From a virus (lineage: Duplodnaviria; Caudoviricetes): DNA of 53,991 nucleotides. The position numbers and the translations under genes are program-made. Location of the stretch: positions 1 through 53,991 of the IMG/VR virus record IMGVR_UViG_3300047157_000023; one strand, given 5' to 3'. This document shows positions 3,850 to 45,522 of the stretch, one piece after another (positions within the stretch are counted from its first letter, which is position 1; each line of letters starts with the position of its first letter). Below the pieces are notes generated by a model that was given only the letters and a program-made list of their open reading frames with translations, was not told the origin of the DNA and did no database searches.

Positions 3850-4104
3850 ATGAAGAAACCAACAATGTACTCTTCTGACAATGTCGTAGAGGAATTTTAT
3901 AGGGCATTAGCTTCAGAAGACGAAGGTAAACTCCGTAGAGTGCACATTCCTAGATCCGATGTGTTCTACATTAGAGAAAAAATACGAAATGATACAGGTA
4001 TAAAGTACTCTCTGGACAGGGTAGAGAGAGCTATGTACCTTGAAGGTCATTTAAAGGCTAGGGATGTTCTAGATCCCAGAAGAAAACGAGAATGGGAAGA
4101 CTAA
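3850..4104 (+). CDS. Hypothetical phage protein, first late-arm gene
   Basis: 84 aa ORF abutting the next gene; the start could be the ATG at 3865. Confidence 0.75.
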   Translation: MKKPTMYSSDNVVEEFYRALASEDEGKLRRVHIPRSDVFYIREKIRNDTGIKYSLDRVERAMYLEGHLKARDVLDPRRKREWED

Positions 4105-4374
4105 ATGGATGGCTTAAAGATACCAGTAGCTCTAGTTTTTGCAATGGCTATCCAATTAGTAGCATTAGTTTGGTATATTAGTAATCTAGTCCACGATATA
4201 GAACATCTGCAGAACACAGTAGTAGAACAGCAGGAACAATTAGACGTATTAAACCTAGATGTAAACGATCTGTGGAACTTTTGCACCTTCACTGAAAACA
4301 AATGGGCTGAAGCCTACGTTGGAGACATGGTTTATGAACGTGTCTGTGGAAATAAAGAGGTTATAGAGAAATAA
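4105..4374 (+). CDS. Membrane-anchored coiled-coil protein in lysis cassette
   Basis: N-terminal TM (IPVALVFAMAIQLVALVWYI) followed by a heptad-like segment; coupled to the next gene. Confidence 0.7.
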   Translation: MDGLKIPVALVFAMAIQLVALVWYISNLVHDIEHLQNTVVEQQEQLDVLNLDVNDLWNFCTFTENKWAEAYVGDMVYERVCGNKEVIEK

Positions 4375-4703
4375 TGGTAATAGACTTTGACGTAGATGGT
4401 GATGGTAAGATCACAGAACAAGAAGTAGCTATGAAAGAACGTATGCTTGAAGTAGAGCTACGTGAAGAGAAGGCTGAGTCACAAAAGAAGATGGCTTGGA
4501 TAGCTATGGTGATGATGATCGGCTTTACAGTTGTTCTATTTACACCACTAATGTCAGATACACGAGTAGCAGCCCTTGCAGATTTGTTAGGGTTGTTTTA
4601 TATTGCACAAACTGGTATAGTAGCAGCATATATGGGAGCTACAGCTTACATGGCAGGAAAGCCAATGGGCAATAAGGTAGCAATGAAGAAGGATATGAGA
4701 TGA
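4374..4703 (+). CDS. Putative holin with N-terminal EF-hand loop
   Basis: Two TM segments, basic C-terminus, directly upstream of the endolysin; DVDGDGKITEQE loop. Confidence 0.55.
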   Translation: MVIDFDVDGDGKITEQEVAMKERMLEVELREEKAESQKKMAWIAMVMMIGFTVVLFTPLMSDTRVAALADLLGLFYIAQTGIVAAYMGATAYMAGKPMGNKVAMKKDMR

Positions 4704-5167
4704 GTTTTAGACTAAGTCAGAGATCAATGGACAGATTAGAGGGTGTACATCCTGCTATGACTGGAGTTGTAGAAAGAGCTATACAACTTACAGATATAGA
4801 CTTTGGAGTTACTCAGGGTATACGTACCCTAGATGAACAAAAAGCTAATGTAGCCGCAGGAAGATCTCAGACTATGCGTTCTAAGCACCTATTACAAGAT
4901 GATGGCTTTAGCCATGCAGTTGATGTAGTAGCTTACGTAGGCCCAGACGTATCCTGGGAGTTAAACCTGTATGATAACATCTGTGATGCTTTTAAACAAG
5001 CTGCAGAAGAGACTGGGGCATCCGTTAAGTGGGGAGCTGCCTGGTCTGAGGGAGATATTAGGTCGTATCCTGGCACAGCTGAGGATGCAATGATGGCATA
5101 CGTAGACTTACGTAGGTCTCAGGGTCGTAGGCCGTTTATTGATGCGCCTCATTTTGAGCTGATGTAA
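4700..5167 (+). CDS. Endolysin, peptidase M15 (L-Ala-D-Glu peptidase-like)
   Basis: LEGVHP, GIRTLDEQ, SKH...HAVD, WGAAW and DAPHFEL motifs of M15-family Zn endolysins. Confidence 0.9.
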   Translation: MSFRLSQRSMDRLEGVHPAMTGVVERAIQLTDIDFGVTQGIRTLDEQKANVAAGRSQTMRSKHLLQDDGFSHAVDVVAYVGPDVSWELNLYDNICDAFKQAAEETGASVKWGAAWSEGDIRSYPGTAEDAMMAYVDLRRSQGRRPFIDAPHFELM

Positions 5168-11374: not shown

Positions 11375-13497
11375 ATGGCAGAAGAAGATTTTGAAGAAAT
11401 GATTATGGACATGGAAGAGACATCAGCAATAGAAGATGTTTCTGAAGAAGACTATAGAGATCCACTTACAGGTCACATTGTTCAGTTTGTCAAAGATAAA
11501 TACAGTAAAGCTGATACAGCTAGACAACTAGATGAAGAACGTTGGATTCAAGCTTACAGAAACTATCGTGGTTTATATGGACCTGATGTACAGTTTACTT
11601 CTACAGAAAAATCTAGGGTATTTGTTAAAGTAACTAAAACAAAAGTTCTTGCAGCTTATGGTCAAATAGCAGAAGTATTATTTGGTGGTAATAAGATTTC
11701 CTATTAGTATTGACCCTACAACTTTACCAGATGGTGTACAAGATACAGTAAACTTTGAAACTAATCCTGAAGTACGTAAAAGCAATTACAAGCCTGAAGA
11801 TATGGCAAACTTACTTCCAGGAGAAACTTACCAGAGTTTAAAGAAAGACTTGGTGCTTTAAAGAATGAATGTTAGAACCTGTAGAAGATGTAAAACCTAG
11901 AAGAAGGTCCAGGTCAAGTCCAAGTGCTATTACAATTTCATCCTGCTGAAGTTGCAGCTAAAAAGATGGAAAAGAAAATACATGACCAACTAGAAGAATC
12001 TCATGCAAAGAAACATCTACGTGCTGCTGCTTTTGAAACAGCACTTGTTTGGTACAGGGGTTATGAAAGGTCCATTTGCTATAGATAAAGAATATCCAAA
12101 CTGGGATGAAGAGGGTAATTACTCTCCTATGTTTAAAACAAGTTCCACAAACTACATCTGTATCTATCTGGAACTTCTATCCAGATCCAGATGCAGCTAC
12201 AATGGAAGAAGCAGAGTACGTTGTAGAACGTCACAAGATGTCACGTTCTCAAGTACGTGGCTTAAAGAATCGTCCTTATCTTCCGTGAAATGCTATTGAT
12301 AATGCTCTACGACTTGGTGAAAGTCCTATCACTAAAGAGTGGTGGGAACACATCATGGAAGATAACTCAGAAGAAGATAAAGCTGAACGTTTTGAAGTTC
12401 TTAGAGTTCTGGGGTTTTGTAGATAAAGAAGTAATAGAAGATCAAGGGGTAGACATCCCTAAAGATTAGAAGATGCAGATCAGCTAAGTGTAAATATCTG
12501 GATTTGTAATGGGCAAGTGTTACGTCTTGTAATGAACCCATTTACTCCAGCTTATATTCCTTACTTTGCAGCTCCTTATGAGATGAATCCATACAGTATT
12601 TTTGGTGTAGGTATTGCTGAGAATATGGATGATACTCAAACACTAATGAATGGCTTTATGCGAATGGCAGTAGATAATGCAGCTTTGTCTGGTAATCTAC
12701 TGATTGAGGTAGACGAGACTAATCTCGTCCCAGGGCAAGACCTCTCCGTGTATCCAGGAAAAGTGTTTAGGAGACAGGGAGGGGCGCCTGGTCAAGCTAT
12801 CTTTGGAACTAAGTTTCCTAACGTAAGTAATGAGAACATGCAGATGTTCGATAAGGCAAGGGTATTAGCAGATGAATCAACTGGCTTTCCATCTTTCGCA
12901 CATGGTCAAACAGGCGTACAAGGTGTGGGTCGTACTGCTTCTGGTATTTCCATGCTTATGTCTGCTGCCAACGGCAGCTATACGGAATGTAGTTAAGAAC
13001 ATAGATGACTATTTACTAGCTCCTTTAGGTAAAGCTTTCTTTAATTTTAATATGCAGTTTGACTTTGATACAGATATTAAAGGTGATCTTGGAGTAAAAG
13101 CTCGTGGTACAGAAAGTCTTATGGCTAATGAAGTACGTAGCCAACGCCTTATGCAATTTATGCAAGTTGTATCAAATCCTGCGCTTGCTCCATTTGCACG
13201 TATGGATTATATTGTACGTGAGATTGCTAAGTCTATGGATCTTGATCCAGATAAAGTTGGCAACAATATGGCACAAGCTGCGGTACAAGCTGAATATTAA
13301 AAAATTCCAAGCTGAGCTAATCCACCACCACCTCCACCACCAGGTGTCCACCACCAGGAGGCCCACAGGGAGCTCCTGCAGGGGCACAGGTACAGGATAC
13401 CCAAGGTAGTGGGGGTGGCACTATAGGAACTGGAACAGCCCCTCAGCCAGGAGAACAGGGCTTCTCAGGTAATACTGGTCAACAACAGGTACAATGA
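11375..13497 (+). CDS. Portal protein (several apparent sequencing frameshifts)
   Basis: Fragments 11375-11707, 12003-12299, 12106-12288, 12517-12996 and 12872-13300 form one portal-like protein after TerL (GTGVMKGP, SIWNFYPDP, GRTASGISML); Pro/Gln-rich tail ends at TGA 13497. Confidence 0.85.
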
Positions 13498-13700
13498 AAC
13501 TAATCGTGAACAATACTTTAAAACCTTTCGTAAACAATCCAGAGTTGTACAATCCATTTCTGGAAGAGATACAAAGTAGAATAGATAAGGTTCATAGACG
13601 ACTTGAGCAACTTAACGATATAGAAGAAGTTTATCGTGCTCAAGGTGAAATACGTATGCTTAGATCAATGCTAAGACTTAGGGATGATATTAATGGCTAA
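13494..13700 (+). CDS. Small head-associated hypothetical protein
   Basis: 68 aa directly after the portal; YRAQGEI motif. Confidence 0.75.
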   Translation: MKLIVNNTLKPFVNNPELYNPFLEEIQSRIDKVHRRLEQLNDIEEVYRAQGEIRMLRSMLRLRDDING

Positions 13701-13731
13701 TACAGTAAAATAATTTGCCGAAGGAGGCGTA

Positions 13732-15504
13732 ATGATAAGACCAGAACCAAGACCAGATATTGTTGACGTATCTCCTAGAGCAGAAGCAGGGGATCAGTTT
13801 TTTGTTGAAGAAGCTGAAAGAAATAAACCATTCCCTAATATTAAACCAAAACCAAGACCTAATTTAGATAAAGATAAAGGTCGTACTTATGACATTTATT
13901 CTGTAGAAATTGATGGAAGAGAGACAAATGTCATTGAGTTTAAAGATGGTTCAAGATTATCTATACCTCAAATAGAACAAATGTTTGAAGGATCTAAAAG
14001 TGCTACAGAATCAATCCCAGGAAAACAAACTACAAAAGAAATAATAAACTTTCTTGAAAGTAATAATCCTACAAGAGAAGAGTTTGTTAAACATTTTACT
14101 GCAAAAAGATTAAACAAAGGTGGAGCCATGATGGAAGAACAAATGCAGATGGCCTTTATGGATGAAGGTGGATTAAAAGATGATGGTATGGAAAAAGATC
14201 CAGTATCAGGTAATGAAGTTCCGTCAGGTTCTATGGCTAAAGAAGTGCGAGATGATATACCTGCACAGTTATCAGAAGGTGAATACGTAGTTCCTGCTGA
14301 TGTTGTTCGTTACTATGGTGTAAAGTTTTTTGAAGATTTGCGAGAAAGAGCAAAAATAGGCTTGCAAGATATGGAAATGAATGGTAGAATAGGTGGTGAG
14401 CCAGTACCTGCAGGTGGTCCAGTAAATAACGAAGAGCTATCTCCAGAAGAAATGCAAGCTATACAAGAGATGATGGGTATGGCTGAAGGTGGTGCTGTAA
14501 ACATGTACAAACAACAGCAAGAACTTTACACAGCTCCAAACCCTGCGATAGGTAATCCTATGCAAATGAACCAAGGTGGTCAAGTTAGTGGGTATGATCA
14601 AGCAGGAGCTGTAACTGCTAATCAACCTGCACCTGTTCCTGCACCTCCTGTTACTTCTGCTTCTGTTGAGCAAGATATGCTTCAAGCAGGTGCAGCAGCG
14701 CAATCAAGCAATTTTGGTGGGTTTCCTCTTGGAGCTACAATATTTCCTTCAGAAAAAACTGGTAAAACAATTTTAGAAACAATGGCAGAGCCAACACCTC
14801 AGACTGTAACTCTTTATAGTCCTAATTATCTTACCGACAATCAAACCATTACTTTGACTCTTCCAGCACAAGATGCTTTATACCAAGAGAAAATTGCAGA
14901 GGGTTATACTACACAACCACCTGTAGCTCCAGCTCCTTCATCAGGAGGAGGTGTTGATATACGACCACCTGCACCACCACCACCTGAAAAAATAGATTAT
15001 ACTACATACAAACCAGACGAATTACTAGAGGCTTTTGATAAAAATAGAAAAACACGTATGGCCTTGTTAGCTTTAGGTGCTGTTAATCCTGTTATTGCTT
15101 TGTTTGGCCAAGGTGCAACAAGAATGCAAGAAAAAGAAATAATAGCTGCAATGAAGGGTAGAGGTATGAAAATTCCAGAGGATGAGGGTGGTATTTTAAG
15201 TAATATTACAGACTTTGTCTCTGGTTTATTTGGTAAAGATAAAGAAGAAATAAAGAACACTGTAATAGACCAGTCTAGTGTAGTACCCACTAAGTCACCT
15301 AGACCAGGAGCTAAACCTAAACGAGCGTTAGATAATTTTAGAAAGTCTGAACAAAAAGAAGTAGATAAAGTAAGGGCTGCAAGAGAAAGAAGAAAGAAAA
15401 GAGGAACAACTGCTAAAGAAAAAGCAGCAGCTATGAAAGATGCAAGTTCTGGCGCAGGTGCATTTGCAGATAGAAGTGGAACATCTGCAGCAGATAGGGT
15501 TTAA
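13732..15504 (+). CDS. Virion-associated protein with repeated xxGG motifs and DDIPAQLSEGEYVVPADVV domain
   Basis: 590 aa between portal and scaffold; may extend to 13693-15537 through in-frame TAA codons at each end. Confidence 0.8.
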   Translation: MIRPEPRPDIVDVSPRAEAGDQFFVEEAERNKPFPNIKPKPRPNLDKDKGRTYDIYSVEIDGRETNVIEFKDGSRLSIPQIEQMFEGSKSATESIPGKQTTKEIINFLESNNPTREEFVKHFTAKRLNKGGAMMEEQMQMAFMDEGGLKDDGMEKDPVSGNEVPSGSMAKEVRDDIPAQLSEGEYVVPADVVRYYGVKFFEDLRERAKIGLQDMEMNGRIGGEPVPAGGPVNNEELSPEEMQAIQEMMGMAEGGAVNMYKQQQELYTAPNPAIGNPMQMNQGGQVSGYDQAGAVTANQPAPVPAPPVTSASVEQDMLQAGAAAQSSNFGGFPLGATIFPSEKTGKTILETMAEPTPQTVTLYSPNYLTDNQTITLTLPAQDALYQEKIAEGYTTQPPVAPAPSSGGGVDIRPPAPPPPEKIDYTTYKPDELLEAFDKNRKTRMALLALGAVNPVIALFGQGATRMQEKEIIAAMKGRGMKIPEDEGGILSNITDFVSGLFGKDKEEIKNTVIDQSSVVPTKSPRPGAKPKRALDNFRKSEQKEVDKVRAARERRKKRGTTAKEKAAAMKDASSGAGAFADRSGTSAADRV

Positions 15505-15540
15505 GGTGGACTAATGACCAAAGGCAAAAAGAAATAATAA

Positions 15541-15564
15541 GGCTACTCAGCTTCGGCTGACCCC
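15541..15564 (+). promoter_or_regulatory. cUUCGg hairpin with CUAC/CC internal loop in scaffold leader
   Basis: GG-CTAC-TCAGC-TTCG-GCTGA-CC-CC. Confidence 0.65.
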
Positions 15565-15582
15565 AACAGAAAAGGAAAAAAT

Positions 15583-16490
15583 ATGCCTGAATTAGCAGAA
15601 GTAGAAACACAAAAAACAGCAGGATTTGTTGACAGAGGTTACAATCACGAAAACGTAAACGTAGCCGAATGGAAGCTGAAGAAGAGGAGATCCGTAAACT
15701 TGAAGCTGAACAACGTGGAGAAGAAGACGAAGAACAGCAACCAGAAGAAGAAGCTTCCGAAAGAAAAAGAGGCCGATACAGAAGCTAAAGAAGAAACGTT
15801 ATCTGCTGAAGAAAAATCTTTTAAAAAGCGATATGGTGATCTAAGACGGCATATGCAAGATAAAGAAAAGGAATGGGACGAAAAGTTTAAAGCCTTTGAA
15901 GAAACGATTAAAAAAGAATCTATTATACCACCTAAGTCTGATGAAGATATAGAACAGTGGGCAAAAGAATACCCAGATGTAGCAGGTATTGTAGAAACTA
16001 TTGCTGCTAAAAAAGCTCAAGGAGATGTTTAGTAAAGCAGATGCTCGTACTAAAAGAGTTAGATGAAAGATTCAAACAGAGGCTGAAAGAACTAAAGCTG
16101 AAAATGTTATTCGTAAATCTCATGAAGACTTTGATGAGCTACGTGCATCAGATGAATTTCATAATTGGGTTGATGAGCAACCTAAGTGGGTACAAGATGC
16201 ACTATATGAAAACTGCAGATGACCCTGCTTCTGTAGTACGTGTTATAGATCTTTATAAAGTAGATAAAGGTCTTACTAAAAGATGCAAAAAAGCAAAAGC
16301 TAAAGATGCAGCTTCTACTGTAACTAAACGTAGTAAAACACAAGTAGATGTAGAAGATGCAAATGACGCAATTCGTGAGTCAGAAGTTGCAAAAATGTCC
16401 GATAAAGAATTTGAAGAACGATCTGACGAAATTAACAAAGCTATCCGTTCGGGTAAATTTGTTTACGATGTATCTGGCAATGCTAGATAA
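15583..16490 (+). CDS. Putative capsid scaffolding protein (apparent frameshifts)
   Basis: Charged helical protein (FKKRYGDLRRH...WAKEYPDV...AIRSGKFVYDVSG) directly upstream of the capsid gene. Confidence 0.7.
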
Positions 16491-16494
16491 GCTG

Positions 16495-16522
16495 TTGACA
16501 AATCAATTTTCAGCAGTATAAC
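16495..16522 (+). promoter_or_regulatory. Promoter for capsid operon
   Basis: TTGACA-N16-TATAAC. Confidence 0.65.
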
Positions 16523-16525
16523 TAT

Positions 16526-16699
16526 GGGTATATTGACAAAAGCCTCTTTTGACTACCTTTTGTCATACTCAAATTCATAAAAAGTCTAAACTAAGAAGAA
16601 CTACCTGGACAAGTATAGGCCCAGTGGTATTCGGTAGGCCAACTCAATACTTACTGCACCCTAGAAAACGTAACAGCCTCTTTTAGATGTTTAGCTTTT
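16526..16699 (+). ncRNA. Structured 5' leader (candidate cis-regulatory RNA) of major capsid gene
   Basis: TGACAAAAG/CTTTTGTCA hairpin, then a multistem closed by AAAAG/CTTTT and CTAAAC/GTTTAG with inner CAGTGGTATT/AATACTTACTG; two CUAC/CC loops. Confidence 0.6.
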
Positions 16700-16730
16700 A
16701 ATTCAAGCCAAATATCAGGAGGATTTTATC

Positions 16731-17806
16731 ATGGCTTTTACAACAGCAGGAGGATACGGTAACTTACCTAACGGTAACTTTTTCCAGTAATCTACTCCAA
16801 AAAAGTACAACTTGCATTCCGCAAGAGTACAGTATGTGGTGACATCACCAACTCAGATTATTTTGGGGAGATTAGCTGCCCAAGGTGATACGGTGAAAAT
16901 CATCAAAGAACCTGAAATTTCAGTGAGCTCATATGCTCGTGGAACACAGGTCAATGCACAAGATCTTGACGATGAAGACTTTCTCTCTAGTCGTTGATAA
17001 AGCTAACTACTATGCTTTTAAAATTGACGATATTGAGGAAGCTCATTCACATGTCAATTTTATGGATCTTGCAACCAACCGTGCAGCATATCGTTTAGCT
17101 GATCAGCATGACCAAGAAGTTCTTGGCTATCTGTCAGGTTACAAACAGTCTGCTTTACACACCGATGCTGACACAGTTAATGACCAAGTAAATGGTTCAA
17201 AAGCTGTATCAACTGCAGGTTCAGACGAGTTGTTATCTTCAATGAAACTTATCAAAAGTCTTCATTTGGTAACATCACAACGTCTTCTGCAGGAGATCAC
17301 TCAATTCCTGTAGCAGCACGTTTACCAGGTGCAACTGCACTACCAACAGCAACTGTTTCACCTGCGATGGTTGTATCTCGTATGAAACGTTTGTTAGATC
17401 AACAACAAGTTGATTCACAAGGTAGGTGGCTCGTAGTTGACCCAGTATTCATGGAAATCTTAGCCGATGAAGATTCACGTCTTCTTAAATGCTGATTACG
17501 GTGAATCAGGTGCTCTACGTAATGGTCTAGTACTGAACAACCTGCATGGCTTCCGTCTATACTTCCTCAAACCTTCCTCACGTAGGTACAGGTTCAGGAA
17601 CTACAGGTTCTGCAAACCAAAACACTAACTATGGTGTTATCGTTGCTGGTCATGACTCAGCAGTAGCAACTGCCGAGCAGATCAGTAAGACTGAAACATA
17701 TCGTGATCCTGACAGCTTTGCTGACATTGTTCGTGGTATGCATCTATACGGCAGAAAGATTCTTCGTCCAGAAGCAATCGTAACTGCTAAATATAACGCA
17801 GCGTAA
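16731..17806 (+). CDS. Major capsid protein (apparent frameshifts)
   Basis: AGGAGG SD; MAFTTAGGYGNLPNGNF...GDTVKIIKEPEI...AFKIDDIE...ETYRDPDSFADIVRGMHLYGRKILRPEA recovered across frames. Confidence 0.9.
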
Positions 17807-45476: not shown

Positions 45477-45504
45477 AAAAGGTAGCCCCCCGAAGAGGGC
45501 TACT
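45477..45504 (-). terminator. Intrinsic terminator downstream of SSB gene
   Basis: - strand AGTAGCCCTC-TTCG-GGGGGCTACC-TTTT. Confidence 0.75.
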
Positions 45505-45522
45505 AGTTGTTTTTGGAGGAGG

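Follow-up and report, generated by a model that had tools for sequence, protein, structure and literature searches.

The leaders of two neighbouring head genes in a marine phage raise the question of whether a small RNA internal loop is re-used there as a module, and what such a module might do. The window, by which we mean the whole stretch analysed (53,991 nucleotides (nt); IMG/VR virus record IMGVR_UViG_3300047157_000023), is the 54-kb genome of a marine podophage of the HMO-2011 type. A preliminary description of it had pointed to three copies of a loop with CUAC on one strand and CC on the other, within the leaders of two genes, the scaffold-like and the capsid gene, and had taken the loop bases to be constant. 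All three sites are found as described: site a (GGCTACTCAGCTTCGGCTGACCCC, 15541–15564), site b (TGACAAAAGCCTCTTTTGACTACCTTTTGTCA, 16534–16565) and site c (GAACTACCTG at 16598–16607 with CAGCCTC at 16674–16680). They are copies of one RNA module, with the strand order swapped in site b, in that a CC/(N)NAC loop recurs within covarying structures, and covariation in three models (R1, R2 and R3) places them within real structured leaders of the two genes. What stays constant is CC facing (N)NAC: the CC and the AC that ends the long strand are indeed fixed, whereas its first two or three bases vary, CUAC being only the commonest form. A protein-binding module is the most economical reading of these sequences.

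The region 15300–17900 matches the Roseobacter phages CRP-9 (74%), CRP-13 and CRP-1 and the Puniceispirillum phage HMO-2011. As relatives we gathered four cultured phages and 80 IMG/VR loci located through the CRP-9 coat, and the gap between the scaffold-like and coat genes is long in all of them (226–328 nt in the cultured phages). The elements referred to below are as follows, in window coordinates, with helices designated P1 to P4b and PL.

15533–15579, + strand: module a, leader element of the scaffold-like gene; R3 match of 62.3 bits, the sole R3 match in the window.
16495–16522, + strand: predicted sigma-70-type promoter of the capsid leader, TTGACA (16495–16500), a 16-nt spacer and TATAAC (16517–16522); from pattern conservation.
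16533–16566, + strand: hairpin P1 with module b, UGACAAAAG-CC-UC[UUUU]GA-CUAC-CUUUUGUCA; R2 match of 44.1 bits, with no second one in the window.
16581–16591, + strand: 5´ strand of the long-range helix PL (AAAG-U-CUAAAC), pairing with 16689–16698; 10 of 10 pairs altered on both sides, 91.3% of cells paired.
16596–16607, + strand: P2a 5´ strand AAGA (16596–16599), long strand of module c ACUAC (16600–16604) and P2b 5´ strand CUG (16605–16607); R1 helices 2 and 3.
16611–16625, + strand: conserved AAGUA (16611–16615), P3 5´ strand UAGG (16616–16619), CC of module d (16620–16621) and P4 5´ strand CAGU (16622–16625); from column counts.
16626–16652, + strand: variable hairpin P4b with apical loop AGGCCA (16636–16641); 9 of 9 pairs altered on both sides.
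16653–16668, + strand: P4 3´ strand ACUG (16653–16656), CAC of module d (16657–16659), P3 3´ strand CCUA (16660–16663) and conserved GAAAA (16664–16668); from column counts.
16674–16682, + strand: P2b 3´ strand CAG, CC of module c (16677–16678; 72 of 72 rows) and P2a 3´ strand UCUU.
16689–16698, + strand: PL 3´ strand GUUUAGCUUU, with 16705–16713 as alternative partner; R1 covariation for PL.
16705–16734, + strand: conserved AAGCCAAAU (16705–16713), Shine-Dalgarno sequence GGAGGA (16718–16723) and capsid AUG (16732–16734); from conservation.

Site a is intergenic, between the stop codon of the upstream gene and the ribosome-binding site of the scaffold-like gene, whose Shine-Dalgarno sequence lies near 15572–15576 and whose AUG is at 15583; the hairpin thus stands a few bases upstream of the ribosome-binding site. 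The element reads AAUAA, GG-CUAC-UCAGC[UUCG]GCUGA-CC-CC (15541–15564) and A-ACAG-AAAAGGA, and its general form is AAUAA-GG-CUAC-[5-base-pair stem, any loop size]-CC-CC-A-ACAUAAGGAG. In 64 of 85 sources covariance model R3 found a single match, always on the gene strand (50 distinct rows). In these rows 99.1% of the paired cells hold a pair, against 91.4% in shuffles, four of the five stem pairs are altered on both sides, and the covariation score of 0.287 compares with 0.139 for shuffled alignments (0 of 500 shuffles equal it) and at most 0.056 with slid partners. The two outer G-C pairs are invariant and hence uninformative on pairing. The long strand begins with C in all 50 rows and continues with U (44), C (3), G (2) or A (1) before AC, and the opposite CC is in practice found in 50 of 50, one row being misaligned. 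An intrinsic terminator was considered for this hairpin and rejected, as CCCCAACAG comes next, without a U run, and the listing of + strand terminators has none at this place; the only terminator-like + strand site found from 11 to 21 kb lies at 12.1 kb. No promoter was found before site a.

Site b forms P1, the first hairpin of the capsid leader, about 10 nt from the predicted 5´ end, and has the layout outer stem, CC, mini-hairpin, (C)NAC, outer stem. A mechanical descriptor of this layout fits 61 of 75 distinct leaders and 26 of 1500 shuffles. Covariance model R2 gave 74 matches, one per locus on the gene strand (55 distinct rows), with 89.4% of paired cells filled (64.8% in shuffles), all 11 pairs altered on both sides and a covariation score of 0.611 (0.182 shuffled). 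Here too the CC is present in every row (55/55), opposite CUAC in 47 rows, AUAC in 4, CCAC in 2 and UUAC and AUUAC in 1 each, so that the long strand begins with C in 49 of 55.

Further downstream, site c closes a rod of roughly 110 nt within a capsid leader of roughly 200 nt overall. Covariance model R1 (160 positions, 34 pairs) found 80 matches, one per locus and on the gene strand, which reduce to 72 distinct rows; 91.4% of paired cells are filled (75.2% in shuffles), 27 of the 34 pairs are altered on both sides, and the covariation score is 0.377, compared with 0.119 when shuffled and at most 0.045 with slid partners. The G-U pairs are compatible with the + strand only, one R1 pair for example being G-U in 32 rows, and P2b turns from CUG/CAG into CUA/UAG (G-C to A-U) in 5 rows. 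The long strand of loop c is NNNAC, with AC in 72 of 72 rows (ACUAC 29, ACCAC 12, CUUAC 10, and others). Between P2b and P3 lies a large internal loop with the conserved AAGUA and GAAAA. P3 (UAGG/CCUA) is mostly invariant and hence uninformative, but beyond it a fourth copy, d, which had been missed in the initial note, presents CC opposite CAC in 72 of 72 rows and is followed by P4, where 4 of 4 pairs covary. Copy d can be assigned to the same module because its long strand in CRP-2 reads ACUAC. The covariation of flanking pairs that the preliminary description had noted thus holds across relatives, in all three models, whereas differences among three copies in one genome are not covariation in the usual sense.

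The apex of P4b is self-complementary in 60 of the 72 distinct rows (GGCC 31, GCGC 19, GAUC 10), and these forms interchange by double substitutions; GGCC becomes GCGC (16638 G to C with 16639 C to G) in contigs from all 4 RNA runs. This suggests loop-loop pairing between two leader molecules. AAGUA immediately precedes P3 and GAAAA immediately follows it, their bases each being kept in 60–71 of 72 rows; they look like the sarcin-ricin (bulged-G) consensus, which has AGUA and GAA on opposite strands beside a helix. In a podovirus from Manatee Spring (L325:1842–2411), a gene with the annotation of an HNH-type restriction endonuclease sits within the capsid leader and splits the promoter-proximal part from the CAGCCUC part, which looks like a homing-endonuclease insertion. 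In one IMG/VR contig (L166), the leader core runs into the coat coding sequence without Shine-Dalgarno sequence or AUG, by deletion or misassembly.

Taken across the relatives, the module is an asymmetric internal loop that occurs with either strand order and with flanking helices of any sequence: one loop in two orientations and four contexts, with unrelated helices. In the CRP-1/HMO-2011 subgroup a nested double copy lies upstream of the scaffold-like gene. The pattern GGCTAC-N5-CCCC-N6-30-GGCTAC-N5-CCCC, which requires no complementarity, has at least 120 matches in IMG/VR. Among the matches listed, 98 are distinct and viral, and of these 88 are complementary at five of five positions, 5 at four, and the other 5 are unrelated direct repeats; the listed matches comprise at least 8 helix types (including UUAUC/GAUAA, UCAUC/GGUGG and CUAUG/CAUAG), and each double site is followed after about 0–20 nt by a Shine-Dalgarno sequence and AUG. 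As a control, 3 of 141 matches to the same pattern in bacterial and archaeal genomes are complementary, one of the three being the genuine element on a marine contig; nearly all matches in bacterial genomes are chance occurrences in GC-rich genomes. Since each strand of the double-site duplex reads GGCUAC-N5-CCCC, the element is two-fold symmetric.

The module also extends to the Sinorhizobium phage phiM6, which has site a and, in its capsid leader, two modules nested one inside the other, again on unrelated helices. Of 23 distinct leaders in the phiM6 clade, 17 contain the module in the outer (A-) orientation and 7 contain nested pairs; the corresponding numbers among 920 shuffles are 83 and 0. 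The core pattern GCACCCTAGAAA-N2-9-AGCCTCTT has at least 120 matches in IMG/VR, and among the matches listed 116 of 118 further ones lie upstream of a coat start. Within the window, a descriptor search gave no extra good-quality copies, and R2 and R3 match nowhere else in it.

The capsid leader appears to have a promoter of its own. The pattern TTGAC[AT]-N15-19-TA[TA]AA[CT] is found in 81 of 84 loci, and likewise in the window, at 225–330 nt upstream of the coat start, both hexamers (TTGACA-N16-TATAAC) being invariant, and it recurs in 112 of 118 further IMG/VR matches among those listed. Marine RNA libraries contain relatives of the leader, a run holding 17–28% of the sampled words. Contigs assembled from such libraries in three studies span 16216–16770, 16352–16757 and 16375–16768, and run from the end of the scaffold-like gene through the promoter and leader into the capsid gene. 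A rise in depth seen along the leader was left out of the evidence.

A second fold is possible for this leader. The CC of loop c and the 3´ strand of P2a together read CCUCUU, which is an anti-Shine-Dalgarno sequence. In the covariation-backed fold UCUU pairs with AAGA and the CC is looped out. At the computed energy minimum the window leader retains P1, P3 and P4 but has, in place of PL and P2, a CCUCUU/AGGAGG pairing; GUUUAGCUU is then also paired with the conserved AAGCCAAAU (helix P5). Of 55 full-length leaders, 52 have the Shine-Dalgarno sequence paired at minimum energy, 38 of the 55 with the CCUCUU stretch, and the covariation-backed fold averages 8.0 kcal/mol above the minimum. The computed probability of an unpaired Shine-Dalgarno sequence is 0.071 and rises to 0.241 when the upstream sequence is shuffled, the native value being the lower one in 52 of 55 leaders; in the phiM6 clade the values are 0.166 and 0.313 (lower in 20 of 22). 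The leader may thus have two mutually exclusive folds, the second, masked state being a prediction. The Shine-Dalgarno and anti-Shine-Dalgarno sequences are invariant, so that their pairing is unable to covary, and a second fold would account for the conservation of AAGA, CCUCUU and AAGCCAAAY as sequences and not just as pairing partners. Insertions of 60–80 nt between the PL 3´ strand and AAGCCAAAY are seen in CRP-13 (L002), L008, L009, L062, L064 and others; some carry hairpins of their own, and their position corresponds to the loop of P5.

What might read the loop? Its unpaired bases are invariant amid helices that change freely, it is used in either orientation, and minimal as well as dyad-symmetric copies stand at the ribosome-binding site, which together argue for a protein operator; a dimeric binder is proposed because many relatives carry the two-fold symmetric double site. 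We consider the chances about even that a single trans-acting RNA-binding protein, probably a dimer, recognises the loop and thereby co-ordinates the translation of scaffold and capsid. At the scaffold site, such a factor would sit over the ribosome-binding site and reduce scaffold synthesis. In the capsid leader, the covariation-backed fold would keep UCUU on the decoy AAGA and leave the ribosome-binding site free, and the alternative fold, computed to be more stable, would place CCUCUU on GGAGG and mask it; by holding P2 closed, a factor at loop c would keep capsid translation on. A single factor would in this way lower scaffold output and raise capsid output, and one RNA module would set the ratio of two head proteins. 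The scaffold-like protein would be a natural candidate for the factor, as a guess. A rather doubtful extension is that this represents a new class of assembly-coupled riboregulation, in which dimers of the scaffold-like protein on the CC/(N)NAC operator would repress their own synthesis, lock the capsid decoy helix and free the capsid site, the leaders perhaps also being paired through their GGCC, GCGC or GAUC apices. Were leader-leader pairing to occur, the switch would depend on mRNA concentration.

The scaffold-like gene product falls into phrog_13678 ('unknown function') and has no Pfam family and no relative of solved structure among PDB sequences; its homologues, at least 8000, are all unnamed. 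Its position, size (about 296 amino acids) and charged composition fit a scaffold. This protein (L014:881–1771 and relatives) is fast-evolving and highly charged, with an invariant basic patch, FKKRYGDLRRH, that could be an RNA- or coat-binding site.

Several points weigh against a dimeric protein operator coupled to a masked fold. The leaders come from related sequences, so that their counts are not independent events, and HMO-2011 itself, CRP-2 and the L024 group are without module b. The inter-loop helix of CRP-3 has 7 base pairs with a bulge, compared with 5 in most relatives; the spacing between the loops is therefore not fixed, which fits a rigid dimer poorly. The label 'scaffold' is given by position, size and composition, and the scaffold-like protein is no more than a candidate for the binder. 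As to the masked fold, it rests on energy predictions and on the complementarity of invariant sequences, and the folding energy of the window leader is unremarkable (z-score −1.1). Helix P5 (GUUUAGCUU with AAGCCAAAY) has 71.8% of cells paired against 69.2% in shuffles, with 17 both-side changes where 8.6 are expected; with such weak covariation it was rejected as a conserved helix and is retained solely as part of a possible second state. The RNA runs, finally, are assembled contigs that bridge the promoter, from which start sites, ends and levels are not readable and in which DNA carry-over is possible.

Alternative explanations have to be weighed against a protein-binding loop. Short motifs are common: when the 54-kb window is searched with a permissive descriptor, requiring an NNAC loop, a CC loop, an inner stem of 4 or more and an outer stem of 2 or more, 27 matches turn up on the + strand (4 of them with CUAC) and 40 on the − strand, so that sites inside one genome are weak evidence. 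Chance resemblance, or a motif at the DNA level such as a protein-binding DNA repeat, nevertheless has practically no probability left: nearly all helices show compensatory changes, the G-U pairs fit one strand, each locus has one match on the gene strand, and in the bacterial-genome control the pattern alone gives no complementarity. The covariation counts refute this explanation. A self-contained RNA with no dedicated binder is unlikely, though to be taken seriously. Here the loop would be a structural block, giving a C-loop-like twist or bend to a leader that serves mRNA stability, by a 5´ hairpin that protects from RNase, and efficient ribosome loading for the phage's most abundant protein, and co-transcriptional folding or temperature would pick the fold. 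This would suit the position of P1 about 10 nt from the predicted 5´ end, the second candidate three-dimensional module in the rod (AAGUA opposite GAAAA around P3) and the fact that PL and P2 are transcribed ahead of the Shine-Dalgarno sequence, so that the open state could form first; C-loops are likewise asymmetric, with key cytosines and an exposed adenine (PMC2952876). Left unexplained, however, are the minimal 7-base-pair hairpin beside the scaffold ribosome-binding site, the two-fold symmetric double copy, and unpaired bases that stay invariant while helices change.

Were the sites instead processed by RNase III or RNase E of the host, in the manner known between phage T7 genes, cleavage would divide the polycistronic transcript of the head genes and set how stable the scaffold and capsid messages are relative to each other. 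T7 RNase III sites contain internal loops, site a is intergenic, and the PL-P2-P3-P4 rod is an irregular duplex long enough for RNase III. The enzyme needs roughly two helical turns of duplex, however, and hairpin a, with only 5 + 2 base pairs, falls far short of this; the contigs, which cannot show ends, have no clustered molecule starts or ends, and we regard the explanation as improbable. It is very improbable that the capsid leader is a riboswitch in which a small molecule at the junctions AAGUAUAGGCC ... GCACCCUAGAAAA selects the open or the masked fold. The two mutually exclusive folds share switching strands and the unpaired bases around the internal loops are strongly conserved, as such a switch would have it, but no Rfam riboswitch class was matched at E-values up to 10, a loop repeated four times with a minimal hairpin at a second gene is unlike a ligand pocket, and genes for head proteins offer no metabolic link. 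Equally, a put-like RNA, acting in cis on the host RNA polymerase for terminator read-through along the roughly 24-kb structural operon, seems scarcely credible. Site a has no promoter in front, the 11–21 kb region has the one + strand terminator-like site mentioned above, and the anti-Shine-Dalgarno logic indicates translation, even if a structured leader with conserved internal loops does directly follow a strong promoter and a long + strand gene operon continues downstream to about 40.5 kb.

The state of the window sequence bears on what can be read from it. Frameshifts break the scaffold-like gene, the coat gene and the large upstream gene; across 12000–17800 there are many of them in these three head-region genes, and long genes elsewhere are unbroken. 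Compared with its nearest relative (L061), the window shows 91.8% identity with 27 gap openings over 4 kb, and contigs from four RNA libraries differ from it by single-base insertions or deletions. The frameshifts at 12000–17800 are thus probably assembly or homopolymer errors clustered there, and homopolymer lengths in the leaders that are peculiar to the window are accordingly not trustworthy. Elsewhere, between − strand genes, a GC-rich hairpin with a U run behind it (AGCCC..GGGGGGCUA-CCUUUU; 45477–45513, − strand) is probably an intrinsic terminator of the early region. No tRNAs were found in the window.

The preliminary description had allowed that the loop might define an undescribed RNA family. 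No Rfam 15 family matches the whole window at gathering score, and a search of 15400–16800 with E-values up to 10 returned three chance matches (snoRNA, miRNA; E 1.8–6.3), far below gathering scores. Literature searches on RNA structure in HMO-2011, on the HMO-2011 coat promoter and on structured RNA upstream of capsid genes found no description. A 2023 IMG/VR catalogue lists 8495 anonymous candidate intergenic structured RNAs (DNAVirus_X), some upstream of capsid or head genes, and may contain pieces of the capsid leader; the passages of its text that were consulted name no candidate upstream of the P22-type coat genes of HMO-2011-type phages (PMC10690425). The leaders and their reusable internal-loop module therefore match no described RNA family, the structured family being observed through covariation and the role as protein operator remaining putative. 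Few phages of the surface ocean are commoner than those of the HMO-2011 type, and the scaffold-like protein has at least 8000 database relatives. A structured RNA before the most expressed gene of these phages, outside Rfam, offers a handle on scaffold/coat balance in tailed phages. The phage phiM6 carries the module and grows on Sinorhizobium meliloti 1021, a tractable host. A compact, orientation-independent candidate protein-binding loop and a predicted anti-Shine-Dalgarno/decoy switch may also be of use as parts in synthetic biology.

The comparison closest at hand is phage P22, the scaffolding protein gene of which is reportedly autoregulated post-transcriptionally; to our knowledge, the RNA target is not known. 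The coat is P22-like (the CRP-9 coat matches PF11651 at 29.8 bits, with a cut-off of 24, and phrog_267, major head protein, with E 1.4e-62), the genes are in the same order (large upstream gene of the portal region, scaffold-like gene, coat), and in the proposed logic free scaffold would likewise lower its own synthesis after transcription. In P22, however, the portal gene ends at 3879, the scaffold gene occupies 3893–4804 and the coat gene starts at 4804; with a portal-scaffold spacer of 13 nt and a scaffold/coat overlap there is no intergenic room for a comparable RNA element, and P22 has no comparable leader or hairpin. It was therefore rejected as a homologous case and the precedent is one of analogy.

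Translational operators such as the T4 gp32 pseudoknot, the T4 gp43 hairpin, the MS2 coat-protein hairpin and the leaders of ribosomal-protein genes are similar in being small structured RNAs near a ribosome-binding site, with invariant unpaired bases and variable helices, and would be similar, in the mechanism proposed here, in being read by a protein that senses its own surplus. They differ in that what recurs here is an internal loop, in either strand order and in 4–5 copies per genome at two genes, and in that one copy lies within an anti-Shine-Dalgarno/decoy switch and would act positively. Ribonucleic antiterminator (RAT) hairpins have two quasi-symmetric asymmetric internal loops and are bound by dimers of the antiterminators LicT, SacY and BglG. 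The double site GGCUAC-N5-CCCC / GGCUAC-N5'-CCCC has a like two-fold symmetry, but RAT overlaps a terminator and controls transcription, whereas the site here adjoins a ribosome-binding site, and there is no sequence likeness or Rfam match. With the gene 10 unit of phage T7, which combines a promoter, a structured leader and a strong ribosome-binding site, the locus shares a major capsid gene with a strong promoter and structured 5´ leader of its own; the T7 leader is short, though, its promoter is one for the phage polymerase, and it has neither a repeated loop module nor an anti-Shine-Dalgarno switch. The loop itself is reminiscent of the C-loop, an asymmetric internal loop described as an RNA-protein binding site, with cytosines that are decisive and an adenine exposed on its long strand (PMC2952876). 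Compared by sequence, copies a and b have the long strand C-N-A-C and copy c has NNNAC, without an invariant first C; the two invariant cytosines here are on the short strand, which is outside the C-loop definition.

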